This document shows positions 10,752 to 46,013 of a DNA stretch of 64,000 bases, in pieces. A model generated the notes under the pieces. The model was given only the letters and a program-made list of their open reading frames with translations. It did no database searches and was not told the DNA's origin. Each line of letters opens with the position of its first letter. Within the stretch, counting starts at the first letter, position 1. Source of the DNA: Candidatus Woesearchaeota archaeon (GTDB lineage Archaea; Nanobdellota; Nanobdellia; Woesearchaeales; GW2011-AR4); the NCBI GenBank assembly GCA_016185755.1, contig JACPMX010000014.1:117868-181867 (forward strand), written 5' to 3'. Made by a program: the position numbers and the translations under genes.

Positions 10752-11822
10752 ATGATCCAGAATAACATCGGAAGGAGAAAATCCCGCAAAGTAAAGGTCG
10801 GCAAACTGTTCATTGGCGGAGATGCTCCCATAACCATCCAGTCAATGACCACGACAGACACAACTGATGTAAAGGCAACAATTGAGCAGATTCATGGTTT
10901 GGAGGAAGTTGGATGCGACATCGTAAGGGTATCCGCTCCTACAATGGAGGCTGCAAAGGCGTTAAAGGAAATCAAGGAAAATATAAGCATTCCTCTTGTT
11001 GTTGACATTCATTTTGACTACAGGATTGCCCTTGAGGCTGTCAAGAATGTTGACAAGCTGAGGATTAACCCCGGCAATATTGGAAATCCTGACAAGGTGC
11101 AGCAGGTTGTAAAGGCGTGCAAAGATTTTCAAGTCCCGATGAGGATTGGAGTCAATCTGGGCTCTTTGGAAAGAGATTTGTTTGACAAATACGGCTATTC
11201 TTCGGAGGCAATGGTTGAAAGCGCAATGCGCCATGTGAAAATCCTTGAGGAGCTTGATTTTTATGACACGATCGTTTCTTTGAAAGCATCTGATGTGCCA
11301 AGAATGGTGAAGGCATACAAATTGTTTGCAGAAAAAACTGATTATCCCCTGCACCTTGGTGTTACAGAAGCAGGCTCAAAATTGCCAGGCGCCATAAAAT
11401 CATCTATGGGGATGGGAATGCTTTTGTCAGAAGGGATTGGAGACACTTTAAGGGTTTCATTGTCAGAGGATCCAAAAGAAGAAGTCAAGGTCGGAAAGCA
11501 AATTTTAAGGAGCCTTGGATTGAGGAATGATGGAGTGCAGGTCACATCCTGTCCAACGTGCGCAAGGACAGAGATAGATGTAATCAAGCTGGTCGAGCAG
11601 CTTGAGAACGCAACTGAAAAAATAAAAAAGCCGGTGCATGTCGCAATCATGGGCTGCGCAGTCAACGGGCCGGGGGAGTCAAGAAAATCAGACATCGGAA
11701 TTGTAGGCGCGCCAGGAAACCATCTGCTTTACAAAGACGGCAAGATTGTTAAGAGAATAAATGATGATGAAATTTACGAAGTTCTTTTGAAGGAGATTAA
11801 TGAGAAAGCAAATGAATCGTAA
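10752..11822 (+). CDS. ispG: 4-hydroxy-3-methylbut-2-enyl diphosphate synthase (GcpE)
   Basis: 356 aa; GcpE family with C-terminal Cys ligands (CPTCART, GCAVNGPGE). Confidence 0.9.
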   Translation: MIQNNIGRRKSRKVKVGKLFIGGDAPITIQSMTTTDTTDVKATIEQIHGLEEVGCDIVRVSAPTMEAAKALKEIKENISIPLVVDIHFDYRIALEAVKNVDKLRINPGNIGNPDKVQQVVKACKDFQVPMRIGVNLGSLERDLFDKYGYSSEAMVESAMRHVKILEELDFYDTIVSLKASDVPRMVKAYKLFAEKTDYPLHLGVTEAGSKLPGAIKSSMGMGMLLSEGIGDTLRVSLSEDPKEEVKVGKQILRSLGLRNDGVQVTSCPTCARTEIDVIKLVEQLENATEKIKKPVHVAIMGCAVNGPGESRKSDIGIVGAPGNHLLYKDGKIVKRINDDEIYEVLLKEINEKANES

Positions 11823-12519
11823 AATTATACTTTTTTTGATATTGACTGTTTTTTTGATAAATATTGGAAATTCATTCGCTAAATCAAACGAATATTATAC
11901 TTGCGAATATTTCAATTCTGGTTTATGTATAGAAGTTTGGTTTAATACATCAATAAGTAATTTAACTGATAAACCTAGCGAATATGGGAAATTTCCATAT
12001 TACACCCAACAAGGAGACTATTTGTATATAGAAAAATTCATCGCAATTAATCATGGGGAAAAAATAAATAGCAGCACTACTTATACTTTAGATATATGGC
12101 CATTAGAATACAAGGGCATGGATGAGAGATTAACAAAATATGGACCTTATACCAATAATTATGGTAAAATTGATATCGAAATTCCTCCTTTAGCTAAAGG
12201 AGACAAGTTTGAATTAGATTATTTACAAAATAGTGTTTATATCAAAAAATTAAATGATCAACCAATTGGTAAATATTCTCATTGGTTTATAGAACTTTAT
12301 AAAGAAGGAGAATGGTTCATCGACGAGGATATTGCAGGAGAAATTGGTGGATATACCTCTATTTTTAATGGATTTAGAAGTCGAATCTTTCAAGTCAACC
12401 CTCCATTAGAGTTAGAAACATTTAGCGATGTAAGAAAACAAGTTAAGTATATCCTTCCTACATTTTTAGTTTCTGTAATAAGTTTAATTGTTTCTATATA
12501 TAGTTTAAGAAGAAGATGA
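11800..12519 (+). CDS. Secreted or surface protein with N-terminal signal/TM and C-terminal TM anchor
   Basis: 239 aa; AT-rich codon usage clearly lower in GC than the flanking MEP genes; overlaps ispG by 23 nt. Confidence 0.45.
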   Translation: MRKQMNRKIILFLILTVFLINIGNSFAKSNEYYTCEYFNSGLCIEVWFNTSISNLTDKPSEYGKFPYYTQQGDYLYIEKFIAINHGEKINSSTTYTLDIWPLEYKGMDERLTKYGPYTNNYGKIDIEIPPLAKGDKFELDYLQNSVYIKKLNDQPIGKYSHWFIELYKEGEWFIDEDIAGEIGGYTSIFNGFRSRIFQVNPPLELETFSDVRKQVKYILPTFLVSVISLIVSIYSLRRR

Positions 12520-19426: not shown

Positions 19427-19515
19427 TAGCCCCGGGCAGATTCGAACTGCCGTCAGAGCCTTTCCATTGCACTGCAACCAAAGGGCCCTATGCTTGACCG
19501 CTACACCACGGGGCT
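19427..19515 (-). tRNA. tRNA-Gln(UUG) with 16-nt canonical (37/38) intron
   Basis: Minus-strand acceptor AGCCCCG/CGGGGCT; anticodon stem-loop GGGCC-CUUUGG[intron TTGCAGTGCAATGGAA]A-GGCTC; T arm GGCAG-TTCGAAT-CTGCC; discriminator A. Confidence 0.6.
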
Positions 19516-31048: not shown

Positions 31049-31086
31049 TCCATAAACTTTAAATAAACTCGTTCTAATTTTTGCTT

Positions 31087-32382
31087 ATGAAACCGGAATC
31101 AGGAGATGTTGTAAAAGTCCATACTGCAGGGCAGGATTATGAAGGGATTCTGATGCCAAGGCCTGATATTTTCGAGAGAGACCATACCATAATCAAATTG
31201 GACAACGGCTATAACATTGGCATTGATAACAGCAAAATAAAGAAAATTGAAGTCGTTAAAAAATATGAAAAGAAAAAGGAAGAAACGCGCAAGCTGAGCC
31301 ATAAAAAAGGGTTGCCTACAATTTCTATACTCTCATTTGGAGGCACTATTTCTTCAAAAGTGGATTACAGGACTGGGGGAGTTTATGCTGACTACACTGC
31401 AGAGGATTTTGTGCAGATGCTGCCTGAGCTTGAGAATGTTGCTAACTTGAAGGCAGAGAAAGTAATGGGCATAATGAGCGAGGATTTTGATGCGGAAGTG
31501 TGGAAGCTTATGGCCAAAAGGATAGCAAAAGAGCTTAATGATGATGGAATTTCCGGGGTTATTGTGACTCAAGGGACCGACACTCTGCATTTTTCTACAG
31601 CAGCAATGTCCTTTTTTTTAAAGGACCTGAACAAGCCTGTTATATTTACAGCCAGCCAGAGAAGCATTGACAGAGGAAGCTCTGATGCATTTTCCAACCT
31701 GCTTTGTGCAGTTCATGCAGCGGCAAAGTTTGACGGGGCTGCTGTTGTAACTTGCATGCACGGAACAAGCAATGACGGGTTTTGCATATTAAATAGGGGG
31801 AGTAAGACCCGTAAAATGCACACCAGCAGACGAGATGCTTTCCGCCCAATTAATGAGCTGCCTCTTGCAAAAGTCTTTGAAGACGGAAAGATTGAGATTT
31901 TGAACAGGAATTACAACAAGAGGAATGAAAATAAAACTGAAGTTGTTGACAATTTTGAGCACAAGACTGCGCTTATTTACGTTTATCCCGGCATGGATCC
32001 TGAAATTCTTGATTATTACAGGAAAGAAAAGTATAAGGGAATTGTGATTGCAGGAACAGGGTTGGGGCATGTTTCAACATTAAACCCAAAACACTCATTA
32101 ATCAAAAAAATAAAAGAGTTAACTGATAATGGAATTCCAGTCATTATCACAAGCCAAACACTTTACGGCAGAGTGCATCCTTTTGTCTATTCTCCATTAA
32201 GGAAACTGTCAATTGAGCTAAACTGCATCTTTGCAGAAGACATGCTGCCTGAAGTTGCTTACATCAAGTTAGGATGGGTTCTGCCGCAGGCAAAGAATAC
32301 AGGGGAAGTAAAGGAAATGATGCTCACAAATTATGCTGGGGAGATAAGCGAGAGAAGCGATGAGGAAAGTTTTTTGTATTAA
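31087..32382 (+). CDS. gatD: Glu-tRNA(Gln) amidotransferase subunit D
   Basis: N-terminal GatD-specific domain plus asparaginase domain (SFGGTISS, GTDT motifs). Confidence 0.85.
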   Translation: MKPESGDVVKVHTAGQDYEGILMPRPDIFERDHTIIKLDNGYNIGIDNSKIKKIEVVKKYEKKKEETRKLSHKKGLPTISILSFGGTISSKVDYRTGGVYADYTAEDFVQMLPELENVANLKAEKVMGIMSEDFDAEVWKLMAKRIAKELNDDGISGVIVTQGTDTLHFSTAAMSFFLKDLNKPVIFTASQRSIDRGSSDAFSNLLCAVHAAAKFDGAAVVTCMHGTSNDGFCILNRGSKTRKMHTSRRDAFRPINELPLAKVFEDGKIEILNRNYNKRNENKTEVVDNFEHKTALIYVYPGMDPEILDYYRKEKYKGIVIAGTGLGHVSTLNPKHSLIKKIKELTDNGIPVIITSQTLYGRVHPFVYSPLRKLSIELNCIFAEDMLPEVAYIKLGWVLPQAKNTGEVKEMMLTNYAGEISERSDEESFLY

Positions 32383-32424: not shown

Positions 32425-32913
32425 ATGTCGATAAAAATTTTAGTTACTGGCGGGACATTCGATAAAGAGTATAATGAGTTAGATGGGACTTTATTCTTTA
32501 AGGAAACGCATTTGGATTCAATGTTGAAAACTGCTAGAGCTAAACTTGATGTTAAAATAAGAACCGTAATGCTTATTGACAGTTTAGACATGACGGATTC
32601 TGATAGGAAACTTATTTTAGAAACTTGTAAAAAATCCATAGAAGACAAAATTCTAATAACACATGGAACCGATACTATGGTAGAAACTGCGCAAATTTTA
32701 GGAAAAAATATTGTGGACAAGACAATTGTACTAACAGGAGCTATGGTACCTTACATATTTAGAAGTTCTGATGGCTTATTTAATTTAGGCTGTGCATTGG
32801 CTTTTGTTCAGTCTTTGCCCAATGGTGTTTATATATCAATGAATGGAAAATATTTCCATTGGGATAATGTTAAAAAAATAAAAGAAATTGGAGAATTCAA
32901 AACAATTAAATAA
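32425..32913 (+). CDS. Stand-alone asparaginase N-domain-like protein
   Basis: 162 aa; LVTGGTFD and ITHGTDTM catalytic threonine motifs, no C-domain; AT-rich. Confidence 0.55.
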   Translation: MSIKILVTGGTFDKEYNELDGTLFFKETHLDSMLKTARAKLDVKIRTVMLIDSLDMTDSDRKLILETCKKSIEDKILITHGTDTMVETAQILGKNIVDKTIVLTGAMVPYIFRSSDGLFNLGCALAFVQSLPNGVYISMNGKYFHWDNVKKIKEIGEFKTIK

Positions 32914-33396: not shown

Positions 33397-34803
33397 ATGT
33401 CCATTAACTATCAATCTTTAGGCTTCAGGTGCGGCCTCGAAGTCCACCAGCAGCTTGAAGGGAAAAAGCTGTTCTGCAGCTGCCCTACCTTGAATTCTGA
33501 CAGGGAGCCTGATATAAGGATAGAAAGAAGATTAAGGGCTGTTGCAGGAGAAACAGGCGATGTCGACGTTGCCGCTGAATTCGAGATGTCAAAAAAAAGG
33601 AAGTTCATTTACGAGGCTGATTCTGCTGATGTCTGCCTAGTCGAGACAGACGAGGAGCCGCCGCACGAGATAAATAAGACAGCTCTTGAAACAGCGCTCA
33701 AAATTTCTCTTTTATTGAATGCCAAGATTGTCGATGAAATCCAGGTGATGAGAAAAACAGTTGTTGACGGCAGCAATGTAAGCGGATTTCAAAGGACAGC
33801 TTTGGTGGCAATGGACGGCTTTATAGAAACTGCAAATGGCAAAGTAGGCATACCAACAATATGCCTGGAGGAAGAGGCAGCCCAAAAGCTGGAAGAAGGC
33901 AAAGATTTTGTGAAATACAGGCTGGACAGGCTCGGCATTCCCTTGATAGAAATAGCGACCGATGCAGGCATAAAAAGCGCGGAGCATGCAAAAGAGGCTG
34001 CAGCACATATTGGGATGATACTGAGAAGCGTTGAAAATGTAAAAAGAGGCCTTGGCACCATACGGCAGGATGTCAACATTTCAATAGAAAAAGGCGCAAG
34101 AACCGAGATAAAAGGCTTTCAGGATTTGAAAAGCATTCCAAAGGTGATAGAATACGAAGTCAAAAGGCAGCTTGATGCAATCAATCAGGGAAAAAAAATA
34201 AGCAAGGAAGTCAGGAAGGCAGAGCAGAATTTCACAACATCTTTCCTGAGGCCCTTGCCCGGGGCTGCAAGGCTCTATCCAGAGACAGACTGCATGCCTG
34301 TCAGAATAGGCAAAGATTACATTGAAAATCTGGAAAAATCGCTCCCAAAATTGCTGACTGAAAAAATCGAGGATTTTGAAAGAAAATATGAGCTTCAGAA
34401 AGGAATGGGCAAAGACCTGATTGGCACGGATTTCGAGCAGCTTGTGGAGAAATCAAAGCTGGAGCCCCTGATAGTGGCAAGGACAATCATCAACACTCCA
34501 AATGAGGTAAAGAAAAAACTGCAAACCAAGGATTTCGAGGAAATTTTGTCATATTATTCACAGGGAAGGATAGCAAAGGAAGCCATAGCAGACTTGCTTG
34601 AGAAAAGAGCTTCAGGCCAGGAAATTGACCTAAGCAAATTCCAGTCCATTTCCAGCGATGACTTGGAAAAAGAAATCAAGAAAACAATAGAGGAAAAACC
34701 GGGGCTTAACTTAAGCGCTTATATGGGGCTTGTGATGGCAAGGCACAGGGGAAAAGTGGATGGAAAGATTGTGATGGAGATATTAAAAAGAATTCTGAAA
34801 TAA
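33397..34803 (+). CDS. gatE: Glu-tRNA(Gln) amidotransferase subunit E
   Basis: 468 aa; GatE N-terminus MSINYQSLGFRCGLEVHQQL. Confidence 0.9.
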   Translation: MSINYQSLGFRCGLEVHQQLEGKKLFCSCPTLNSDREPDIRIERRLRAVAGETGDVDVAAEFEMSKKRKFIYEADSADVCLVETDEEPPHEINKTALETALKISLLLNAKIVDEIQVMRKTVVDGSNVSGFQRTALVAMDGFIETANGKVGIPTICLEEEAAQKLEEGKDFVKYRLDRLGIPLIEIATDAGIKSAEHAKEAAAHIGMILRSVENVKRGLGTIRQDVNISIEKGARTEIKGFQDLKSIPKVIEYEVKRQLDAINQGKKISKEVRKAEQNFTTSFLRPLPGAARLYPETDCMPVRIGKDYIENLEKSLPKLLTEKIEDFERKYELQKGMGKDLIGTDFEQLVEKSKLEPLIVARTIINTPNEVKKKLQTKDFEEILSYYSQGRIAKEAIADLLEKRASGQEIDLSKFQSISSDDLEKEIKKTIEEKPGLNLSAYMGLVMARHRGKVDGKIVMEILKRILK

Positions 34804-34842: not shown

Positions 34843-35109
34843 ATGCAAAAAACAGCAAAACCGAATAGGGAATTTTTAGATATTAATTATCTAATTCCTA
34901 GTAGGAGGGATCTTGAAGGAAGGCTTGGGAGGTTTAGAATAATTTTAGATGACCAAGGCTATCCAATAAGAATAGAAAAAAGACACTCAACTTTAAAACC
35001 TGTTGGAGCTCCATTTTCTGAAGTCTCTATTCTGGGCCATCTTGTCGGCGATGGGGTTAGTGAAGAGGATTATCAAAAATACGTAAAGCCACATATAAGA
35101 TATCCATAG
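34843..35109 (+). CDS. Hypothetical protein (AT-rich islet)
   Basis: 88-aa ORF, lower GC than neighbours. Confidence 0.3.
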   Translation: MQKTAKPNREFLDINYLIPSRRDLEGRLGRFRIILDDQGYPIRIEKRHSTLKPVGAPFSEVSILGHLVGDGVSEEDYQKYVKPHIRYP

Positions 35110-35171
35110 AAACTCATTTTATAGGAAGTATTTAAAACAAACAAAAATTACATTTAATTGGTGAACTAAAA

Positions 35172-35414
35172 ATGGCATTCGGAAAGTTTGACAAGAGCCT
35201 GGACAAGGAATTGTTCTCGGAAACTATAAATTTTGAGACGTCAAGGATAACTGTGGGAGTGTTCTCATACAATGATGGCGAAAAGAAGATGCAGGTTTCA
35301 AGGGAGAACATGAACCAGGATGGTGAATGGTCCTTTGCAAAGCTAGGCAGGATGTTCAAGGACGAGGCAGAAAAAGTCATTCCGGTGATGGAAAAAGCGC
35401 TGAAGCATATGTGA
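35172..35414 (+). CDS. Possible PC4/YdbC-like ssDNA-binding protein
   Basis: 80 aa; pattern FSETINFETSRITVGVFSYNDGEKKMQVSRENMNQDGEWSFAKLGRMFKDE resembles the bacterial/phage PC4-like fold. Confidence 0.35.
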   Translation: MAFGKFDKSLDKELFSETINFETSRITVGVFSYNDGEKKMQVSRENMNQDGEWSFAKLGRMFKDEAEKVIPVMEKALKHM

Positions 35415-35481
35415 TAGTTCTAACTTTATAGTGGTAAAAAATAGAAATATTTAAAAAGATTAGTTACTTTGTAATATATAA

Positions 35482-36507
35482 ATGGGAAATTTTACAATAG
35501 ACGAGGCAACAGAGCAAATTCGAGAAATCCTAGATGAAAATGTGAGTATCATCCGCTCTTCTAGGCCTACACCTATGCTTCCAGAGTTAGTTCTTCAGAC
35601 AATTAAAAATTACCACTTGAAAATGAGGGTTGTTGAAAATTCCCGAAACGGCCAAACACTTGACATTTATTTTAGACTTAAGAAAGCCAAGGGATATGGC
35701 GATGATCCGGGTGTTGTTACGCCTTCCCAAATCTGGAATTTTGAATGGATTAATGCGTTAAATGACCAAGCTCACGAAGAAATAATATGTGCTTCCAGAG
35801 AAAAATACAAAACTAAAGTAAAACTTGTAGAAGGGCTCAGGACAGCAGAAGTAGAAAAAAGAGATAAACTAGCCGAAGCTGTAAAAGCAAATTATGGGGA
35901 CGAATCTCTTCAAGCAGCAGGTTTAACTTTTAGACAATCTGTTGAAGATAAATTTCCCTTACCCAGATATAAAGAACCTGCAAAAGCCAAAATTCCATAT
36001 CATGAAGGTGTTCTTGTGAAGGATGGAGATGAAAAATTTAAGACAGCTTACATCGAAGATTCATTAATCGTTAATACTTATGATTTAACTACGCCTCACC
36101 ACATTAAGGTAATATGGATAAATCATGGACATCATCCTAGCTTTCAAGTTTACTTAGATAATACCGCTAAAACTGTTAGAAGCAAAATTCCCCTCATCAA
36201 AATGCAAAGAGGCGTTTTATCTTACGGCAATTTCGGAAGTCTTGGAGATATTTGTAATACTCTCTCCGGTTCCCCCGATGGAGTTCCTCCAAGGGTACCT
36301 TCTGTACTTGACGAAATACGCAGAGAAAATTTTCAGGTATATGGTACCTATTCAAGACCAGGGCCATCTTTTTTTTACCAAACAGCTAGCGGTTTTCATC
36401 AGTTTAGGAGTGCATTAAAACGAGTAGTCGAATCAGGCAAGGATTTTCACAGAGAACTAAAAGATCCAATTCCAGAACCTTCGATAGCCAGTCTTTTGAC
36501 CACTTAA
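35482..36507 (+). CDS. Hypothetical protein (341 aa), no recognisable domain
   Basis: Long ORF with coding-like composition; contains an HGHHP motif. Confidence 0.45.
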   Translation: MGNFTIDEATEQIREILDENVSIIRSSRPTPMLPELVLQTIKNYHLKMRVVENSRNGQTLDIYFRLKKAKGYGDDPGVVTPSQIWNFEWINALNDQAHEEIICASREKYKTKVKLVEGLRTAEVEKRDKLAEAVKANYGDESLQAAGLTFRQSVEDKFPLPRYKEPAKAKIPYHEGVLVKDGDEKFKTAYIEDSLIVNTYDLTTPHHIKVIWINHGHHPSFQVYLDNTAKTVRSKIPLIKMQRGVLSYGNFGSLGDICNTLSGSPDGVPPRVPSVLDEIRRENFQVYGTYSRPGPSFFYQTASGFHQFRSALKRVVESGKDFHRELKDPIPEPSIASLLTT

Positions 36508-36534
36508 GAGTTTTCTGCTTTTTTCAAAAAAAAA

Positions 36535-36640
36535 CGCGCCGGGGAGGATTCGAATTCGGGATGAAAGAGCAGTTACTCGATCATGCCCCCGGCCTAGAGG
36601 TTAGGAACCTCTCGCTCTATCCAAGCTGAGCTACCGGCGC
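36535..36640 (-). tRNA. tRNA-Arg(CCU) with ~31-nt non-canonical intron in the T-arm
   Basis: Minus-strand acceptor GCGCCGG/CCGGCGC; D arm GCTC/GAGC; anticodon stem-loop AGAGG-TTCCTAA-CCTCT. T stem GGGGG/CCTCC is interrupted by CATGATCGAGTAACTGCTCTTTCATCCCGAA before TTCGAAT; discriminator G. Confidence 0.6.
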
Positions 36641-36763
36641 ATATAATAATAGAAAACACGGCATTTTAAAAAGCTTGTTTTTATGTTCAGCATTCTAAGG
36701 TGTTATGTTTATATCAAATTCCTGCAAAAACATTTATATATACTGACTAAATAGTCCCTATAT

Positions 36764-37636
36764 ATGGAAATAAGGAACATCCAGAAGACTGGCGACATGC
36801 ATTATCTTTACCTTCCCACTTCTTGGTGCAGGGAGCACAAAATCGGCTCAAGGTCAAAAGTCAGCATAGGGCAGAGCAGCGATGGCTCGCTTGTCATCTC
36901 CCCCCAGATAGTCGAGGCCAAGCCGAAGCACCTGAAGCTGAGCATATCAGAGGATGACGAGGATGTCATACACAAGCTTGCAGTTGCCTGCTACATAAAC
37001 CCTGCAGGCTCCTTCGAGATAAACTTCGAGAAGGAAATGGACTTCACAAGGCTTCTTAACCAAAAAAGGCTTATAAGCCTGGAATCTGTCGAGATAGACA
37101 AGAAGCAGATAAGCTGCCACGGCGCAGTCTCTGTCGCTGACCCTGAATCATTGATAAAGACAATGACCAAGAAAATCAAGAACATGATAACCGTCATGCA
37201 GAAGGCCTACGACAAGGAGCTCATAGACAGGTACGAAGACGAGATTGACAGGAGCAAGATGCTCATTGACAAGTCAATAATAAGCTCCCTCACCTTTGAA
37301 AGAGCCACAAAATCAAAGACTATAGATTTATATTATATCTCCCTCATATCAAAGGATTTGGAAAGGATGGTCGACCATCTCATATGCGTGAGCAGCAAGG
37401 AGTCTGAATTCCTGACCATTGTCCATGACATAATAGACCAGCTTCATAATATAATGGAGAATACCCCGAGCCTTAATTGCAAGACAGCGCTTCAGTTTGT
37501 CAAGAAGGTAACAAAGATAGGCGGCTTCGAGGTCAAGGACATAAAAAGCTATGACAAGGAAAGAATCAGGCTTTCATTGGTTACAATTGCGGAGATTGTA
37601 ACGGACTGGGCCATAACAAAGGAGATAGAAAAATGA
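36764..37636 (+). CDS. PhoU-like regulator with N-terminal SpoVT/AbrB swapped-hairpin domain
   Basis: 290 aa; N-terminus MEIRNIQKTGDMHYLYLP (AbrB-like) followed by PhoU-like helical repeats. Confidence 0.5.
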   Translation: MEIRNIQKTGDMHYLYLPTSWCREHKIGSRSKVSIGQSSDGSLVISPQIVEAKPKHLKLSISEDDEDVIHKLAVACYINPAGSFEINFEKEMDFTRLLNQKRLISLESVEIDKKQISCHGAVSVADPESLIKTMTKKIKNMITVMQKAYDKELIDRYEDEIDRSKMLIDKSIISSLTFERATKSKTIDLYYISLISKDLERMVDHLICVSSKESEFLTIVHDIIDQLHNIMENTPSLNCKTALQFVKKVTKIGGFEVKDIKSYDKERIRLSLVTIAEIVTDWAITKEIEK

Positions 37637-37711
37637 TTATTTTAAACATACAAATGTTTTTCATATAACATTTAGGTGCTTTTATTAAGATAACATCCAA
37701 TACTTTTCCAA

Positions 37712-42196: not shown

Positions 42197-43926
42197 ACAA
42201 AATGGAAAAAGGAGTTTTATTCAGGATTGCAGGGCCTGTTGTAGTTGCAAAAGGCATCAAGCCCAGAATGTATGATGTCTGCAGGGTTGGTAATGAAAGC
42301 CTCATGGGGGAAGTTATACAGCTTGATGGCGACAAAGTCATAATACAGGTTTATGAGGACACTTCAGGAATAAAGCCGGGTGAGCCGGTTGTCAACACAG
42401 GAGAGCCGCTGAAAGTGGAGCTTGGCCCCGGAATGCTCGGAAGCATTTATGACGGGATCCAAAGGCCTTTGCCTGTCCTGATAAAGCAGATGGGCGATTT
42501 CATCAAGAGGGGAGTTGACGCTCCCGGCCTTGACCAGGCAAAAAAATGGGACTTCAAGGCTATTGTAAAAAATGGAGAAAATGTTTCTGCCGGCCAGGCT
42601 ATTGGGGAAGTCGAGGAAAACCCGGGAATTATCCACAGGATAATGATTCCGCCCAATCAAAAAGGAAAAATAGCGGAAATAAAATCCGGCAAGTTCACAG
42701 TCAATGATACCATAGGAAAGCTGGACAACGGCTTTGAATTAAGGCTGAAGCACAATTGGCCTGTCAGGATTGCACGGCCTGTTAATGCAAAACTGAAGCC
42801 TGAAGCCCCGCTGATCACCGGCCAGAGAATTTTTGATGCATTGTTTCCTTTGGCCAAAGGGGGAGTTGCTGCAATCCCTGGCCCCTTCGGAGCAGGAAAA
42901 ACAGTCTCGCAGCAGCAGCTTGCAAAATGGTCGGACGCTGACATAATCGTATATGTCGGCTGCGGGGAAAGGGGCAATGAAATGACAGAAGTGCTTACAG
43001 AATTTCCGCAGCTTACAGACCCAAGAAGCGGCAAGCCGCTCATGAACCGGACTGTGCTGATTGCAAACACATCAAACATGCCAGTGGCTGCAAGGGAAGC
43101 CAGCATCTACACTGGAATTACAATTGCAGAATATTACAGGGACATGGGCTACTCAGTTGCCTTGATGGCTGATTCCACATCAAGATGGGCAGAAGCGATG
43201 AGGGAAATATCCTCAAGGCTGGAAGAAATGCCGGGCGAAGAAGGCTATCCTGCTTACCTGTCGACAAGGCTTGCGCAATTTTATGAAAGGGCAGGCAGGG
43301 TCATTCCGCTTGGGACAAAGAAGGAAGCCAGCATAAGCGTGATTGGCGCAGTAAGCCCTCCCGGGGGAGACATATCCGAGCCTGTATCCCAGTCTACTTT
43401 AAGGGTGACAAAGGTTTACTGGAAGCTTGATGCCAAATTAGCCCAAAGAAGGCATTTTCCGTCAATAAACTGGCTTGATTCATATTCCAACTATTTGGAG
43501 ATATTGGAGCCGTGGTACTCAAAGAATGTTGCTCCTGACTGGAACAATTTGGTGAAAGAGATTATGTCAATCCTTCAGGAGGAGGACAAGCTGCTTGAGA
43601 TCGTCCAGCTTGTCGGCTCCGACGCGCTGGCGGAAAGGCAGCAGGTCACCCTGCAGACCGCAAGGCTCATAAGGGAAGTTTTATTGCAGCAGAATGCATT
43701 CCACGAGATAGACACTTTCTGCGAGTCAAAGAAAACTTATGCCATAATGAAGGCAATACTGCAATTTTCAAGGCTTGCAAATTCCGCCCTTGACAGCGGT
43801 GCGAGGGTGCAGCAGATCCTCTCAACAAAGGCAAAGGACAGGCTCAGCGAGGTCAAATTCGTGAAGGAGTATGAAAAGCTGCTTGGCGACATAACAGGGC
43901 AGATGGAAAAGGAGATGAAGGTTTAA
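42187..43926 (+). CDS. atpA: A-type ATPase catalytic subunit A
   Basis: 579 aa; P-loop GPFGAGKT and non-homologous region typical of A subunits. Confidence 0.9.
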
Positions 43927-43927
43927 A

Positions 43928-44644
43928 ATGAAAGATAAAAAAGTTTTGATTGTTCAGAATGTTTCCCATGAAAGTCCCGGCTTAATTGGAGAGATTTTAA
44001 ATGACAATGGAATTGATTTTGAGGCTGTTGACTTAAACAACGAAGACGATTTTCCAAATCCCATAAATTATTCTGCAGTTTTCGTTTTTGGAGGTCCAAA
44101 TAGCGCTAATGATCCAACATCCAAAATGAAAAATGAATTGGAAATAATAAAACAGGCTTTAGCTAACAACATTCCTTATTTTGGAATTTGCTTAGGGATG
44201 CAAACTGTAGTAAAAGCGGCAGGCGGCGAGGTGCATAGGAATAACGTCAAGGAAATAGGTTTTAAGGATCCTGAGGGGAAAATTTTTGAAATAGAACTAA
44301 CAAGTGAAGGGAGTAAAGATGCCCTATTCAATGGAATTAAATCGCCAATGAAAATATTTCATCTGCATGGAGAAACTGTTAAATTAACTCCAAAAATGAG
44401 ATTATTGGCAACAGGAAAATATTGTCAAAATCAGGTTGTAAAAGTTGGAGACGATGCATACGGATTTCAAGGGCACCTTGAAGTGACGGAGTCATTACTA
44501 AAGGAATGGGTAAAAAAAGATAATGATTTGAAATTAATGGATTCAAATTCTTTGATAAAAGATTACGGAACATTAAAATCAGAATATCAACAAAACAGTA
44601 AAACAATAATAAATAATTTTTTGCAAATTGCAGGACTAATATAA
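43928..44644 (+). CDS. Class I glutamine amidotransferase-like protein, inserted between atpA and atpB
   Basis: 238 aa; GICLGMQ nucleophile elbow, downstream His (FQGHLE). Start lies 1 nt after the atpA stop and its stop 1 nt before atpB; more AT-rich than neighbours. Confidence 0.7.
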
Positions 44645-44645
44645 A

Positions 44646-46013
44646 ATGAAGGAATACAAGACAATAACAAGGGTCGCCGGGCCTCTGATTTTCGTCGAGA
44701 AGACGGAACCCATAGGATATGCCGACATTGTAAGGATAGCTATGCCGAACGGCGATGTTAAAAACGGGCAGGTTCTGGACACTAGCAACGACATAGTGGT
44801 TGTGCAGGTGTTTGAAGGGACAGCCGGAATTGATGTTGATACAAGAGTCAAGTTCCTGGGCGACACATTAAAGCTGAATGTCTCAAAAGACATGCTCGGC
44901 AGGATTTTAAGCGGATCAGGAAAGCCCATAGACAAGGGGCCGGAAATCATCCCGGAAAAAAGGTTGGATATTATCGGTGCTGCAATCAACCCGTTCGCAA
45001 GAGCTTCTCCGCATGATTTCATACAGACAGGAATATCAACGATAGACGCGATGAATACCCTTGTCCGCGGGCAGAAGCTTCCATTGTTTTCCGGCTCAGG
45101 CTTGCCGCATAATGAAATTGCTCTGCAGATAGCTCGTCAGGCAAAAGTCATTGGAAAGCAGGAAAACTTTGTTGTTGTTTTTGCTGCAATGGGCATAACA
45201 AATGAAGAGGCGCAGTACTTCATCAGTGATTTTGAGCAGACAGGCGCATTGGAAAGAAGCGTCGTTTTCCTCAATCTTGCAAATGACCCTGCAGTTGAAA
45301 GGCTTGTCACTCCAAGGATGGCATTGACAGCTGCCGAATATTTCGCATACGAGCATGACGCCCATGTTCTTGTTATTTTGACGGACATGACAAACTATTG
45401 CGAGTCGCTGAGGGAGATAGGCGCTGCAAGGGAAGAGATCCCGGGAAGAAGAGGGTATCCCGGCTACATGTACACTGACCTTGCAATGATTTATGAAAGG
45501 GCCGGAGTCATAAAAGGAAAGAAGGGAAGCGTCACCCAGATCCCAATTTTAACAATGGTAGGCGATGACATAACCCATCCAATCCCGGATTTGACGGGCT
45601 ACATTACAGAGGGCCAGATTGTCCTGGCAAGGGAACTGCACAGAAAAGGAATCTATCCTAGCATTGATGTACTTCCCTCATTGTCAAGGCTGATGAACCT
45701 TGGCATAGGGCCGGCAAGGACAAGGGACGATCACAAGCAAGTCTCGGACCAGATGTACGCAGCTTATGCAGAAGGCCGTGACTTGAGAGGGCTTGTCGCA
45801 ATTGTAGGGGAAGAGGCGCTGAGCGAGCGCGACAAGAGGCTTCTGAAATTCGCCGCAGAATTCGAGGACAAGTTTGTAAGGCAGAAAAAAGATGAGAACA
45901 GGAGCATTGCAGAGACTCTCGATCTTTGCTGGAGCCTGCTTGGATTGCTGCCGTCAAATGAGCTGACAAGGATAAGCCCGGAACTCAGGCAGAAATATCA
46001 CAGGCAGAAATAA
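44646..46013 (+). CDS. atpB: A-type ATPase subunit B
   Basis: 455 aa regulatory subunit. Confidence 0.9.

Follow-up and report, generated by a model that had tools for sequence, protein, structure and literature searches.

What is the history of the three open reading frames (ORFs) that separate gatE from the gene for tRNA-Arg(CCU) in an archaeal genome: did they arrive together, or does each have its own origin? We addressed this question in a 64,000-nt stretch of DNA (referred to as the window, meaning this whole stretch) from Candidatus Woesearchaeota, a DPANN archaeon whose genome was assembled from a metagenome. A sequence-only reading of the window had described the three co-oriented ORFs, encoding 88, 80, and 341 aa, as an AT-rich islet and had proposed either a decayed integrated element or a small accessory module, possibly a defence system. 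We confirmed the coordinates and flanks of these ORFs and found that, shadow frames aside, they are the only ORFs of at least 50 aa in the islet. The earlier observation is largely correct; its reading as one islet or one system is not supported. We conclude, with a probability of roughly 0.78, that the region is composite, consisting of a conserved 80-aa core gene flanked by two single accessory genes, each inserted independently, within a hypervariable spacer linked to the tRNA. It is an ordinary flexible-genome hotspot and not a new system.

The evidence that carries this conclusion comes from the same locus in relatives. We scanned one genome per GTDB species, which returned 60 loci (the 30 closest are labeled L017 to L046), and read the gene order of metagenome contigs L006 to L011 from precomputed gene calls. 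The 80-aa gene was found in 60 GTDB species loci at 56 to 99% identity, with gatE directly upstream in 28 of the 30 close loci and atpH plus atpI downstream in 25 of them, the rest being mostly contig ends. The same order of gatE, 80-aa gene, and ATPase genes occurs on contigs L006 to L011. In addition, we found 666 clusters homologous to the 80-aa protein in the protein database, the best 120 of which show 83 to 96% identity, and the named homologues among these 120 belong to Woesearchaeota or Nanoarchaeota; remoter 77-aa forms stand in other contexts without a constant partner. Compared with metagenome contig L015, the ratio of nonsynonymous to synonymous substitution rates (dN/dS) of this gene is 0.015 at a dS of 0.68. 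The 80-aa gene is thus under strong constraint and stands apart from its neighbours as a core gene of Woesearchaeota, normal in composition and syntenic in dozens of relatives, which is the very pattern that the sequence-only reading had named as speaking against its own proposal.

Base composition also sets this gene apart. The 88-aa and 341-aa ORFs have GC contents of 0.363 and 0.380, respectively, and GC contents at third codon positions (GC3) of 0.236 and 0.266, whereas the 80-aa gene (GC, 0.44; GC3, 0.593) is not AT-rich, so that the proposed AT-rich three-gene islet holds for two of its members and fails for the one between them. For reference, the GC3 values of the neighbouring gatE, 290-aa gene, and atpI are 0.478, 0.612, and 0.520, respectively, the mean over 38 long ORFs of the window is 0.477 (standard deviation, 0.095), and the GC content of the host genome is 0.42. 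The span from 34843 to 36507 falls within the lowest 5% of equal-sized stretches by composition, and equally low values occur elsewhere in the window (e.g., at 32425-32913, 11800-12519, and 43928-44644).

The 88-aa protein is basic (isoelectric point, 9.3) and has no Pfam or NCBIfam match. We found homologues of it at two loci only, both in the same position, namely, L015 (78% identity) and L033 (38% identity). By tblastn, L033 was the only one of the 60 species loci with this gene, in addition to contig L015; a scan of metagenomes with the protein recovered L033 alone, under the label L083, which is the same sequence, and a hidden Markov model (HMM) search of all fetched loci gave no more members. 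In relatives, only about 27 to 60 nt lie between gatE and the 80-aa gene. Since the length of the 88-aa ORF is kept, together with its frame, and its dN/dS is 0.21 (at a dS of 0.65, compared with L015), it is a real gene; its product is probably dispensable, strain-specific, and cytoplasmic. Small orphan ORFs adjoin the 80-aa gene also in L021 (4727-4993), L039 (4595-4918), and L045 (5280-5708) and share with the 88-aa protein a C-terminal motif, roughly [FW]SE...GV[ST]...[FY]...P, with E-values of 1e-6 between L039 and L045 and 0.012 between the window ORF and L021. Together with the 88-aa ORF, they may represent a rapidly evolving family bound to this site.

The 341-aa ORF corresponds to NCBI protein HYX08_06050. 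As the sequence-only reading had stated, it has no recognizable domain: the window protein gave no Pfam, NCBIfam, PHROG, PADLOC, or PDB sequence match. A word-indexed search of 5.8 billion clusters recovered only the protein itself, and an exhaustive phmmer search yielded four distant homologues (E-values of 1e-25, 6e-22, 1e-8, and 2e-4; 25 to 35% identity). The family shares the motifs AKGYG..VTPSQ, PYHEG.LV, DLT.P, and PS.FY and has 17 invariant positions across four full-length sequences and one C-terminal fragment; these positions include His, Glu, Asp, Ser, and Tyr, which may mark an enzyme. The family profile retrieved nothing from the PDB sequences, and the Pfam and PHROG matches of the five members were at chance level, each in one member only. 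Since the family keeps conserved motifs at 25 to 35% identity, the 341-aa ORF is a real gene of a very rare family, with a protein that is probably dispensable, strain-specific, and cytoplasmic. By tblastn, the gene was found in 0 of the 60 species loci, and no relatives were detected in IMG/VR, among JGI metagenome contigs or INPHARED phages, or among ORFs elsewhere in the window and in all fetched loci. IMG/VR also gave no relatives for the 88-aa and 80-aa proteins; the viral homologues whose presence the sequence-only reading had suggested checking did not turn up.

The contexts of the distant homologues differ from that of the window copy. One homologue (L013) adjoins the gene for RNA polymerase subunit L (rpoL), another (L014) adjoins a LysE gene and small ORFs, and none of the four has the 88-aa or the 80-aa gene alongside. 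Their contigs are short, with a GC content of ~0.36, and their genes have GC3 values of 0.22 to 0.24; the composition of the window copy matches theirs, which fits a donor of lower GC content. We infer that the 341-aa gene was gained horizontally from an archaeal donor with a GC content of ~36%. A 65-aa ORF of L014 that looked Gp49/RelE-like by eye was not confirmed as such by Pfam or NCBIfam. We also observed five Logan contigs with an identical 341-aa gene, all of which end at window position 36558, inside the tRNA. The sequence L001, which covers window positions 35178-36558, differs from the window at 15 sites, all clustered at 35210-35333 within the 80-aa gene, and its 341-aa gene is free of differences; it represents a mosaic of strains or else a chimera formed during assembly, and since the latter is possible, we did not take this pattern as evidence of transfer.

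Since the 80-aa gene is core and each of the other two genes occurs without the other, the three do not make up one islet. Both L015 and L033 have the 88-aa homologue without the 341-aa gene; on L015, the order is gatE, 88-aa gene, 80-aa gene, tRNA, and 290-aa gene. Because this contig carries the 88-aa gene without the 341-aa gene, the two additions are independent, and the 341-aa gene is unique to this genome at this site. The accessory character proposed for the islet stands for these two genes, which are lineage-specific, atypical, and placed where relatives have almost no DNA (for the 341-aa gene, 15 to 26 nt from the 80-aa stop codon to the tRNA, where the tRNA is oriented as in the window and cargo is absent); their union in one islet or module does not. 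Specifically, the 341-aa gene is adjacent to the tRNA, atypical in composition, and absent from relatives, and the 88-aa gene is atypical and absent from nearly all relatives without adjoining the tRNA; none of this applies to the 80-aa gene. Each of the three ORFs has its own spacer and, read by eye, a TATA-like AT-rich box ~25 to 35 nt 5′ of its ATG, and thus each is probably a separate transcription unit. A scan for sigma-70 promoters and intrinsic terminators, models that are not applicable to an archaeon, gave nothing above expectation.

The tRNA-Arg(CCU) gene that bounds the region is itself unusual. It is 106 nt long, matches tRNA model RF00005 of Rfam at 42.4 bits (gathering score, 29), and contains a noncanonical ~31-nt intron in the T-arm, at about 36555-36585. 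Because of this intron, ARAGORN missed the intact gene; once the intron was removed in silico, the program called tRNA-Arg(cct), and the fold of the pre-tRNA retains the acceptor, D, and anticodon arms. The covariance match and the call restored by removal of the insert identify an intron-containing tRNA. A gap of 27 nt separates the 3′ end of this tRNA from the 341-aa stop codon opposite it, in agreement with the 28 nt noted before.

We found a tRNA-Arg(CCU) gene in every syntenic locus; 16 loci have it on the plus strand and 18 on the minus strand (counted over the window, four metagenome contigs, and the 30 species loci). By blastn, window positions 36529-36683 align to positions 849-678 of L015, on the reverse strand, at 80% identity; the corresponding cassette segments from L006 and L016 are reversed as well, and that of L010 aligns in the orientation of the window. 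In other words, the cassette has the opposite orientation in the closest relative without the 341-aa gene. The introns also vary between close species: there are none, one in the D-loop, one in the T-arm, both, or an insert of ~108 nt (L017). Several of these tRNA-Arg genes were missed by ARAGORN and by the Rfam gathering threshold. At 1980-2111 of L023, a plus-strand copy of the tRNA-Arg gene, truncated in the T-loop, stands head to head with a partial minus-strand copy that has a D-loop intron; this arrangement reflects either a genuine intermediate of inversion or an assembly that merged two strains whose tRNA orientations are opposite.

The spacer around this tRNA varies in both length and content. 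Across the syntenic loci, between about 0.2 kb and >3 kb separate the 80-aa gene from the conserved gene that follows, with extra DNA on the 3′ side of the tRNA in 11 loci including the window (coding in all but L026) and on its 5′ side in 7 loci. The cargo assigned so far is listed in Table 1, and several orphan ORFs are also part of it. In L035 and L038, LAGLIDADG ORFs converge on the tRNA-Arg gene and overlap its 3′ exon in antisense, so that the complement of the tRNA 3′ end codes for the final residues of both ORFs. The window region holds no relics of the cargo genes of the other loci. Beyond the tRNA, only 11 of the 30 close species loci have the 290-aa gene (PhoU domain at an E-value of 0.0012, below the Pfam cutoff). 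Its dS relative to L006 is 0.225, compared with 0.94 for the neighbouring 80-aa gene on the same contig; because of this difference, the locus would seem to have undergone a recent exchange of the 290-aa gene between lineages, as the sequence comparison suggests. At the DNA level, window positions 36678-37642 (the 290-aa gene and its upstream part) are 93.8% identical to L006, and the flanking genes are 80 to 86% identical.

Table 1 Features around the three ORFs in the window and cargo in the spacers of related loci (positions refer to the window unless a locus is named)
Feature	Position	Strand	Remarks
gatD	31081-32382		Left end of the gene order around the finding
Asparaginase-like ORF, 162 aa	32425-32913		Directly after gatD
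MJ1316-domain ORF, then 78-aa ORF			Between the asparaginase-like ORF and gatE
gatE	33397-34803	+	Conserved left anchor; homologues in related loci have Pfam GatB_N and GatB_Yqey
88-aa ORF	34843-35109	+	Accessory; between gatE and the 80-aa gene
80-aa gene	35172-35414	+	Woesearchaeota core gene
341-aa ORF	35482-36507	+	Accessory; downstream of the 80-aa gene, adjoining the tRNA 3′ end
tRNA-Arg(CCU)	36535-36640	-	Rfam match; intron in T-arm
tRNA cassette (gene plus flanks)	36529-36683		Inverted relative to L015, L006, and L016
290-aa gene	36764-37636	+	Weak PhoU-like match; variable right-hand neighbour
A-type ATPase operon	From 37712		Conserved right flank
LAGLIDADG ORF	L035 6666-7436	-	Pfam LAGLIDADG_3, E-value of 1e-7
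LAGLIDADG ORF	L038 4426-5202	-	Pfam LAGLIDADG_3, E-value of 1e-5
DUF4258 plus MazE/MqsA-like pair	L037		Spacer cargo
TrmB-type regulators	L036, L020		Spacer cargo; Pfam-confirmed in L036, L020 ORF alike by eye
AsnC-type regulator	L028		Spacer cargo
FMN-binding protein	L031		Spacer cargo
ABC-transporter-like genes	L020		Spacer cargo; by eye

Taken together, the variable spacer length, the cargo, the flips of the tRNA, its introns, and the exchange of the 290-aa gene speak for recombination within a hotspot between conserved anchors rather than for one integration event at the tRNA. Here, each of the two spacers flanking the 80-aa gene has gained one AT-rich gene independently, the 88-aa gene upstream and the 341-aa gene downstream, and the latter would have entered by recombination in the hotspot. 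The likeliest route would be homologous or illegitimate recombination anchored on the flanking conserved genes, more so than arrival on an element with an integrase and subsequent decay. Integration at the 3′ end of the tRNA is not needed to explain the pattern, because cargo lies on both sides of the tRNA elsewhere.

Some observations weigh against a composite region with two unrelated gains. The 341-aa gene abuts the 3′ end of the tRNA, which is the classical attachment side, and a decayed element is possible for that gene; all three known members of the 88-aa family lie between gatE and the 80-aa gene, directly upstream of the latter, which could mean a functional link; and the low-GC donor is deduced from three short contigs only. 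The first of these points raises the possibility that the 341-aa gene is the last remnant of an element that integrated at the tRNA-Arg(CCU) 3′ end and lost its integrase and att sites, the inversion of the cassette being a by-product of att recombination. Its atypical composition and absence from relatives, the tRNA inverted relative to L015, the extra DNA on the 3′ side in 11 loci, and the LAGLIDADG ORFs that overlap the 3′ end in L035 and L038 would all fit such an origin. However, we found no integrase in the window region, including the three ORFs (Pfam and NCBIfam scans), or among ten spacer ORFs of other loci scanned by Pfam, the remaining ones being judged by eye. The 20-nt 3′ exon of the tRNA has no second copy in the 64-kb window, even with 3 mismatches allowed, and there are no convincing direct repeats, only short AT-rich two-copy matches; the absence of an integrase or att repeat is one point on which the sequence-only reading was right. 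Moreover, cargo occurs on the 5′ side of the tRNA in 7 loci, viral or plasmid-like homologues were not found, and the insert is a single gene, all of which makes a remnant quite unlikely. The positional constancy of the 88-aa gene could instead mean that it forms a functional pair with the 80-aa gene, for instance, as its fast-evolving partner or regulator, with the 341-aa gene as unrelated cargo. The small ORFs beside the 80-aa gene in L021, L039, and L045 with their shared C-terminal motif would agree with such a pair, but the motif similarity is weak, and neither tblastn nor HMM searches detected such an ORF in 27 of the 30 close species, because of which the 80-aa protein must be able to work without an 88-aa partner. 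We consider this pairing unlikely.

A module of all three genes, acting, for example, in defence or DNA transactions, is very improbable, and the gene distribution contradicts it. The ORFs are co-oriented and closely spaced, and a PADLOC scan of the 341-aa family (the window protein plus homologues) gave, in one distant homologue out of the five members, weak matches to PDC-S05 (E-value of 0.0016) and LmuB, with E-values of 0.0016 to 0.0095. Furthermore, the start of the homologue in L012 is overlapped by a preceding 48-aa ORF that is RHH-like by sub-threshold matches (Pfam RHH_1 and VapB at E-values of 0.03 to 0.04, below the cutoffs; nothing in NCBIfam). Against this, the three genes never occur together elsewhere, one of them is core, each has its own spacer and TATA-like box (by eye), and the window 341-aa protein itself has no PADLOC, Pfam, or PHROG match. 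An adjacent small antitoxin-type ORF, as expected of a type II toxin-antitoxin system, is absent in the window, L013, and L014. The suggested defence role thus finds no convincing match. At the other extreme, the 88-aa and 341-aa ORFs might be chance open frames in noncoding AT-rich spacer, as their low GC content, their lack of any domain match, and a single-sequence AlphaFold2 (AF2) model of the 341-aa protein with a predicted local distance difference test score (pLDDT) of 32 would allow. This reading, to which we give next to no credence, is refuted by the conservation data, i.e., the frame and length of the 88-aa ORF kept at 78% identity with a dN/dS of 0.21 and the 341-aa homologues with E-values down to 1e-25 and 17 invariant positions.

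A bolder version of the hotspot reading can be formulated, in which the tRNA-Arg(CCU) spacer of Woesearchaeota is an actively maintained recombination hotspot. Here, LAGLIDADG endonucleases could make a break in the tRNA or close to it, the repair of which would flip the cassette, shuffle the introns, and import cargo genes, those of the 341-aa orphan family among them. Separately, the 80-aa protein could be a new DPANN-specific, nucleic-acid-binding housekeeping protein. We regard this bolder version as rather improbable.

The composite reading corrects a plausible misreading, in that low GC content and a nearby tRNA suggested one islet, and the relatives show a core gene and two gains. Current concepts remain unchanged; this is a known kind of genome plasticity and of modest interest, although the small hypervariable site at tRNA-Arg(CCU) could mark strain-level gene flow in groundwater DPANN populations. 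More noteworthy are its by-products, namely, the conserved 80-aa protein and the flipping, intron-variable tRNA-Arg. The 80-aa protein is unannotated, very conserved, and widespread among the sampled Woesearchaeota and Nanoarchaeota genomes, and it may merit structural or biochemical study since DPANN genomes are small and conserved unknowns in them few.

We also noted several features elsewhere in the window. The ORF at 32425-32913 has an asparaginase N-terminal domain that stands alone, is very AT-rich (GC, 0.309; GC3, 0.252), and has homologues at the same position only in L018, L026, and L043; it is a further patchy insertion in the same gene cluster. A 239-aa ORF at 11800-12519 has the lowest GC3 of the window (0.196; GC, 0.281) and no Pfam match. 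At 43928-44644, a 238-aa class-I glutamine amidotransferase ORF (Pfam GATase, E-value of 6e-22; GC3, 0.255) is squeezed, nearly without spacers, between the two large ORFs 42202-43926 and 44646-46013, which, judged from their operon position, are presumably the A and B subunits of the ATPase. Lastly, ARAGORN reports a "tRNA-???" with a four-base anticodon at 19427-19515 on the minus strand, where Rfam at the gathering threshold gives no tRNA.

How do these elements compare with known systems? The sequence-only reading had seen a PC4/YdbC-like signature for binding of single-stranded DNA in the 80-aa protein, which was not borne out. PC4-like domains have a beta-beta-beta-beta-alpha topology (PMC7549692), and YdbC has been described as well (PMC3575825). 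The 80-aa protein is of similar size, its motif order is alike by eye, and its AF2 model (pLDDT of 50, from a shallow alignment at 83 to 96% identity) has three predicted strands followed by a C-terminal helix, which would be compatible with this topology. It differs in that Pfam gives no match to the PC4 or YdbC family, nor to DUF2128 (PF09901), and in that hhalign of the 80-aa family against the C-terminal domain of human PC4 returned a probability of 0.2%. With Pfam E-values of up to 1 allowed, only DUF1348 appeared, below threshold, in 18 of 42 family members; the profile retrieved nothing relevant from PDB sequences, and the low-confidence model gave no significant fold match. Our best guess is an abundant housekeeping protein, for which a putative nucleic-acid-binding role is possible.

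SSV-type and pNOB8-type elements are archaeal elements with tRNA-targeted integrases. The region resembles them in that an inserted gene of foreign-looking composition adjoins the 3′ end of a tRNA, and it differs from them in that it has neither an intact nor a partitioned integrase, no duplication of the tRNA 3′ segment, and no viral or plasmid genes. It also resembles the flexible islets or hotspots that occur between conserved anchor genes in prokaryotic genomes, often beside tRNA genes, with which it shares conserved flanks (gatE plus the 80-aa gene to the left and tRNA-Arg plus the ATPase operon to the right), species-specific content, atypical composition, and orphan and toxin-antitoxin-like cargo. 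In contrast to these, the site is very small, with one gene per slot and without an integrase, transposase, or att site, its cargo lies on both sides of the tRNA, and the tRNA itself flips between species.

Archaeal pre-tRNAs with noncanonical bulge-helix-bulge introns are known in Thermoproteales and in DPANN/ARMAN. The types of splicing endonuclease that cut noncanonical archaeal tRNA introns have been described (PMC5829648). The tRNA-Arg(CCU) gene resembles such genes in having its intron outside position 37/38, and its relatives have D-loop introns, T-arm introns, or both. What distinguishes it is that both the position of the intron and the orientation of the gene differ between close species at one orthologous gene.

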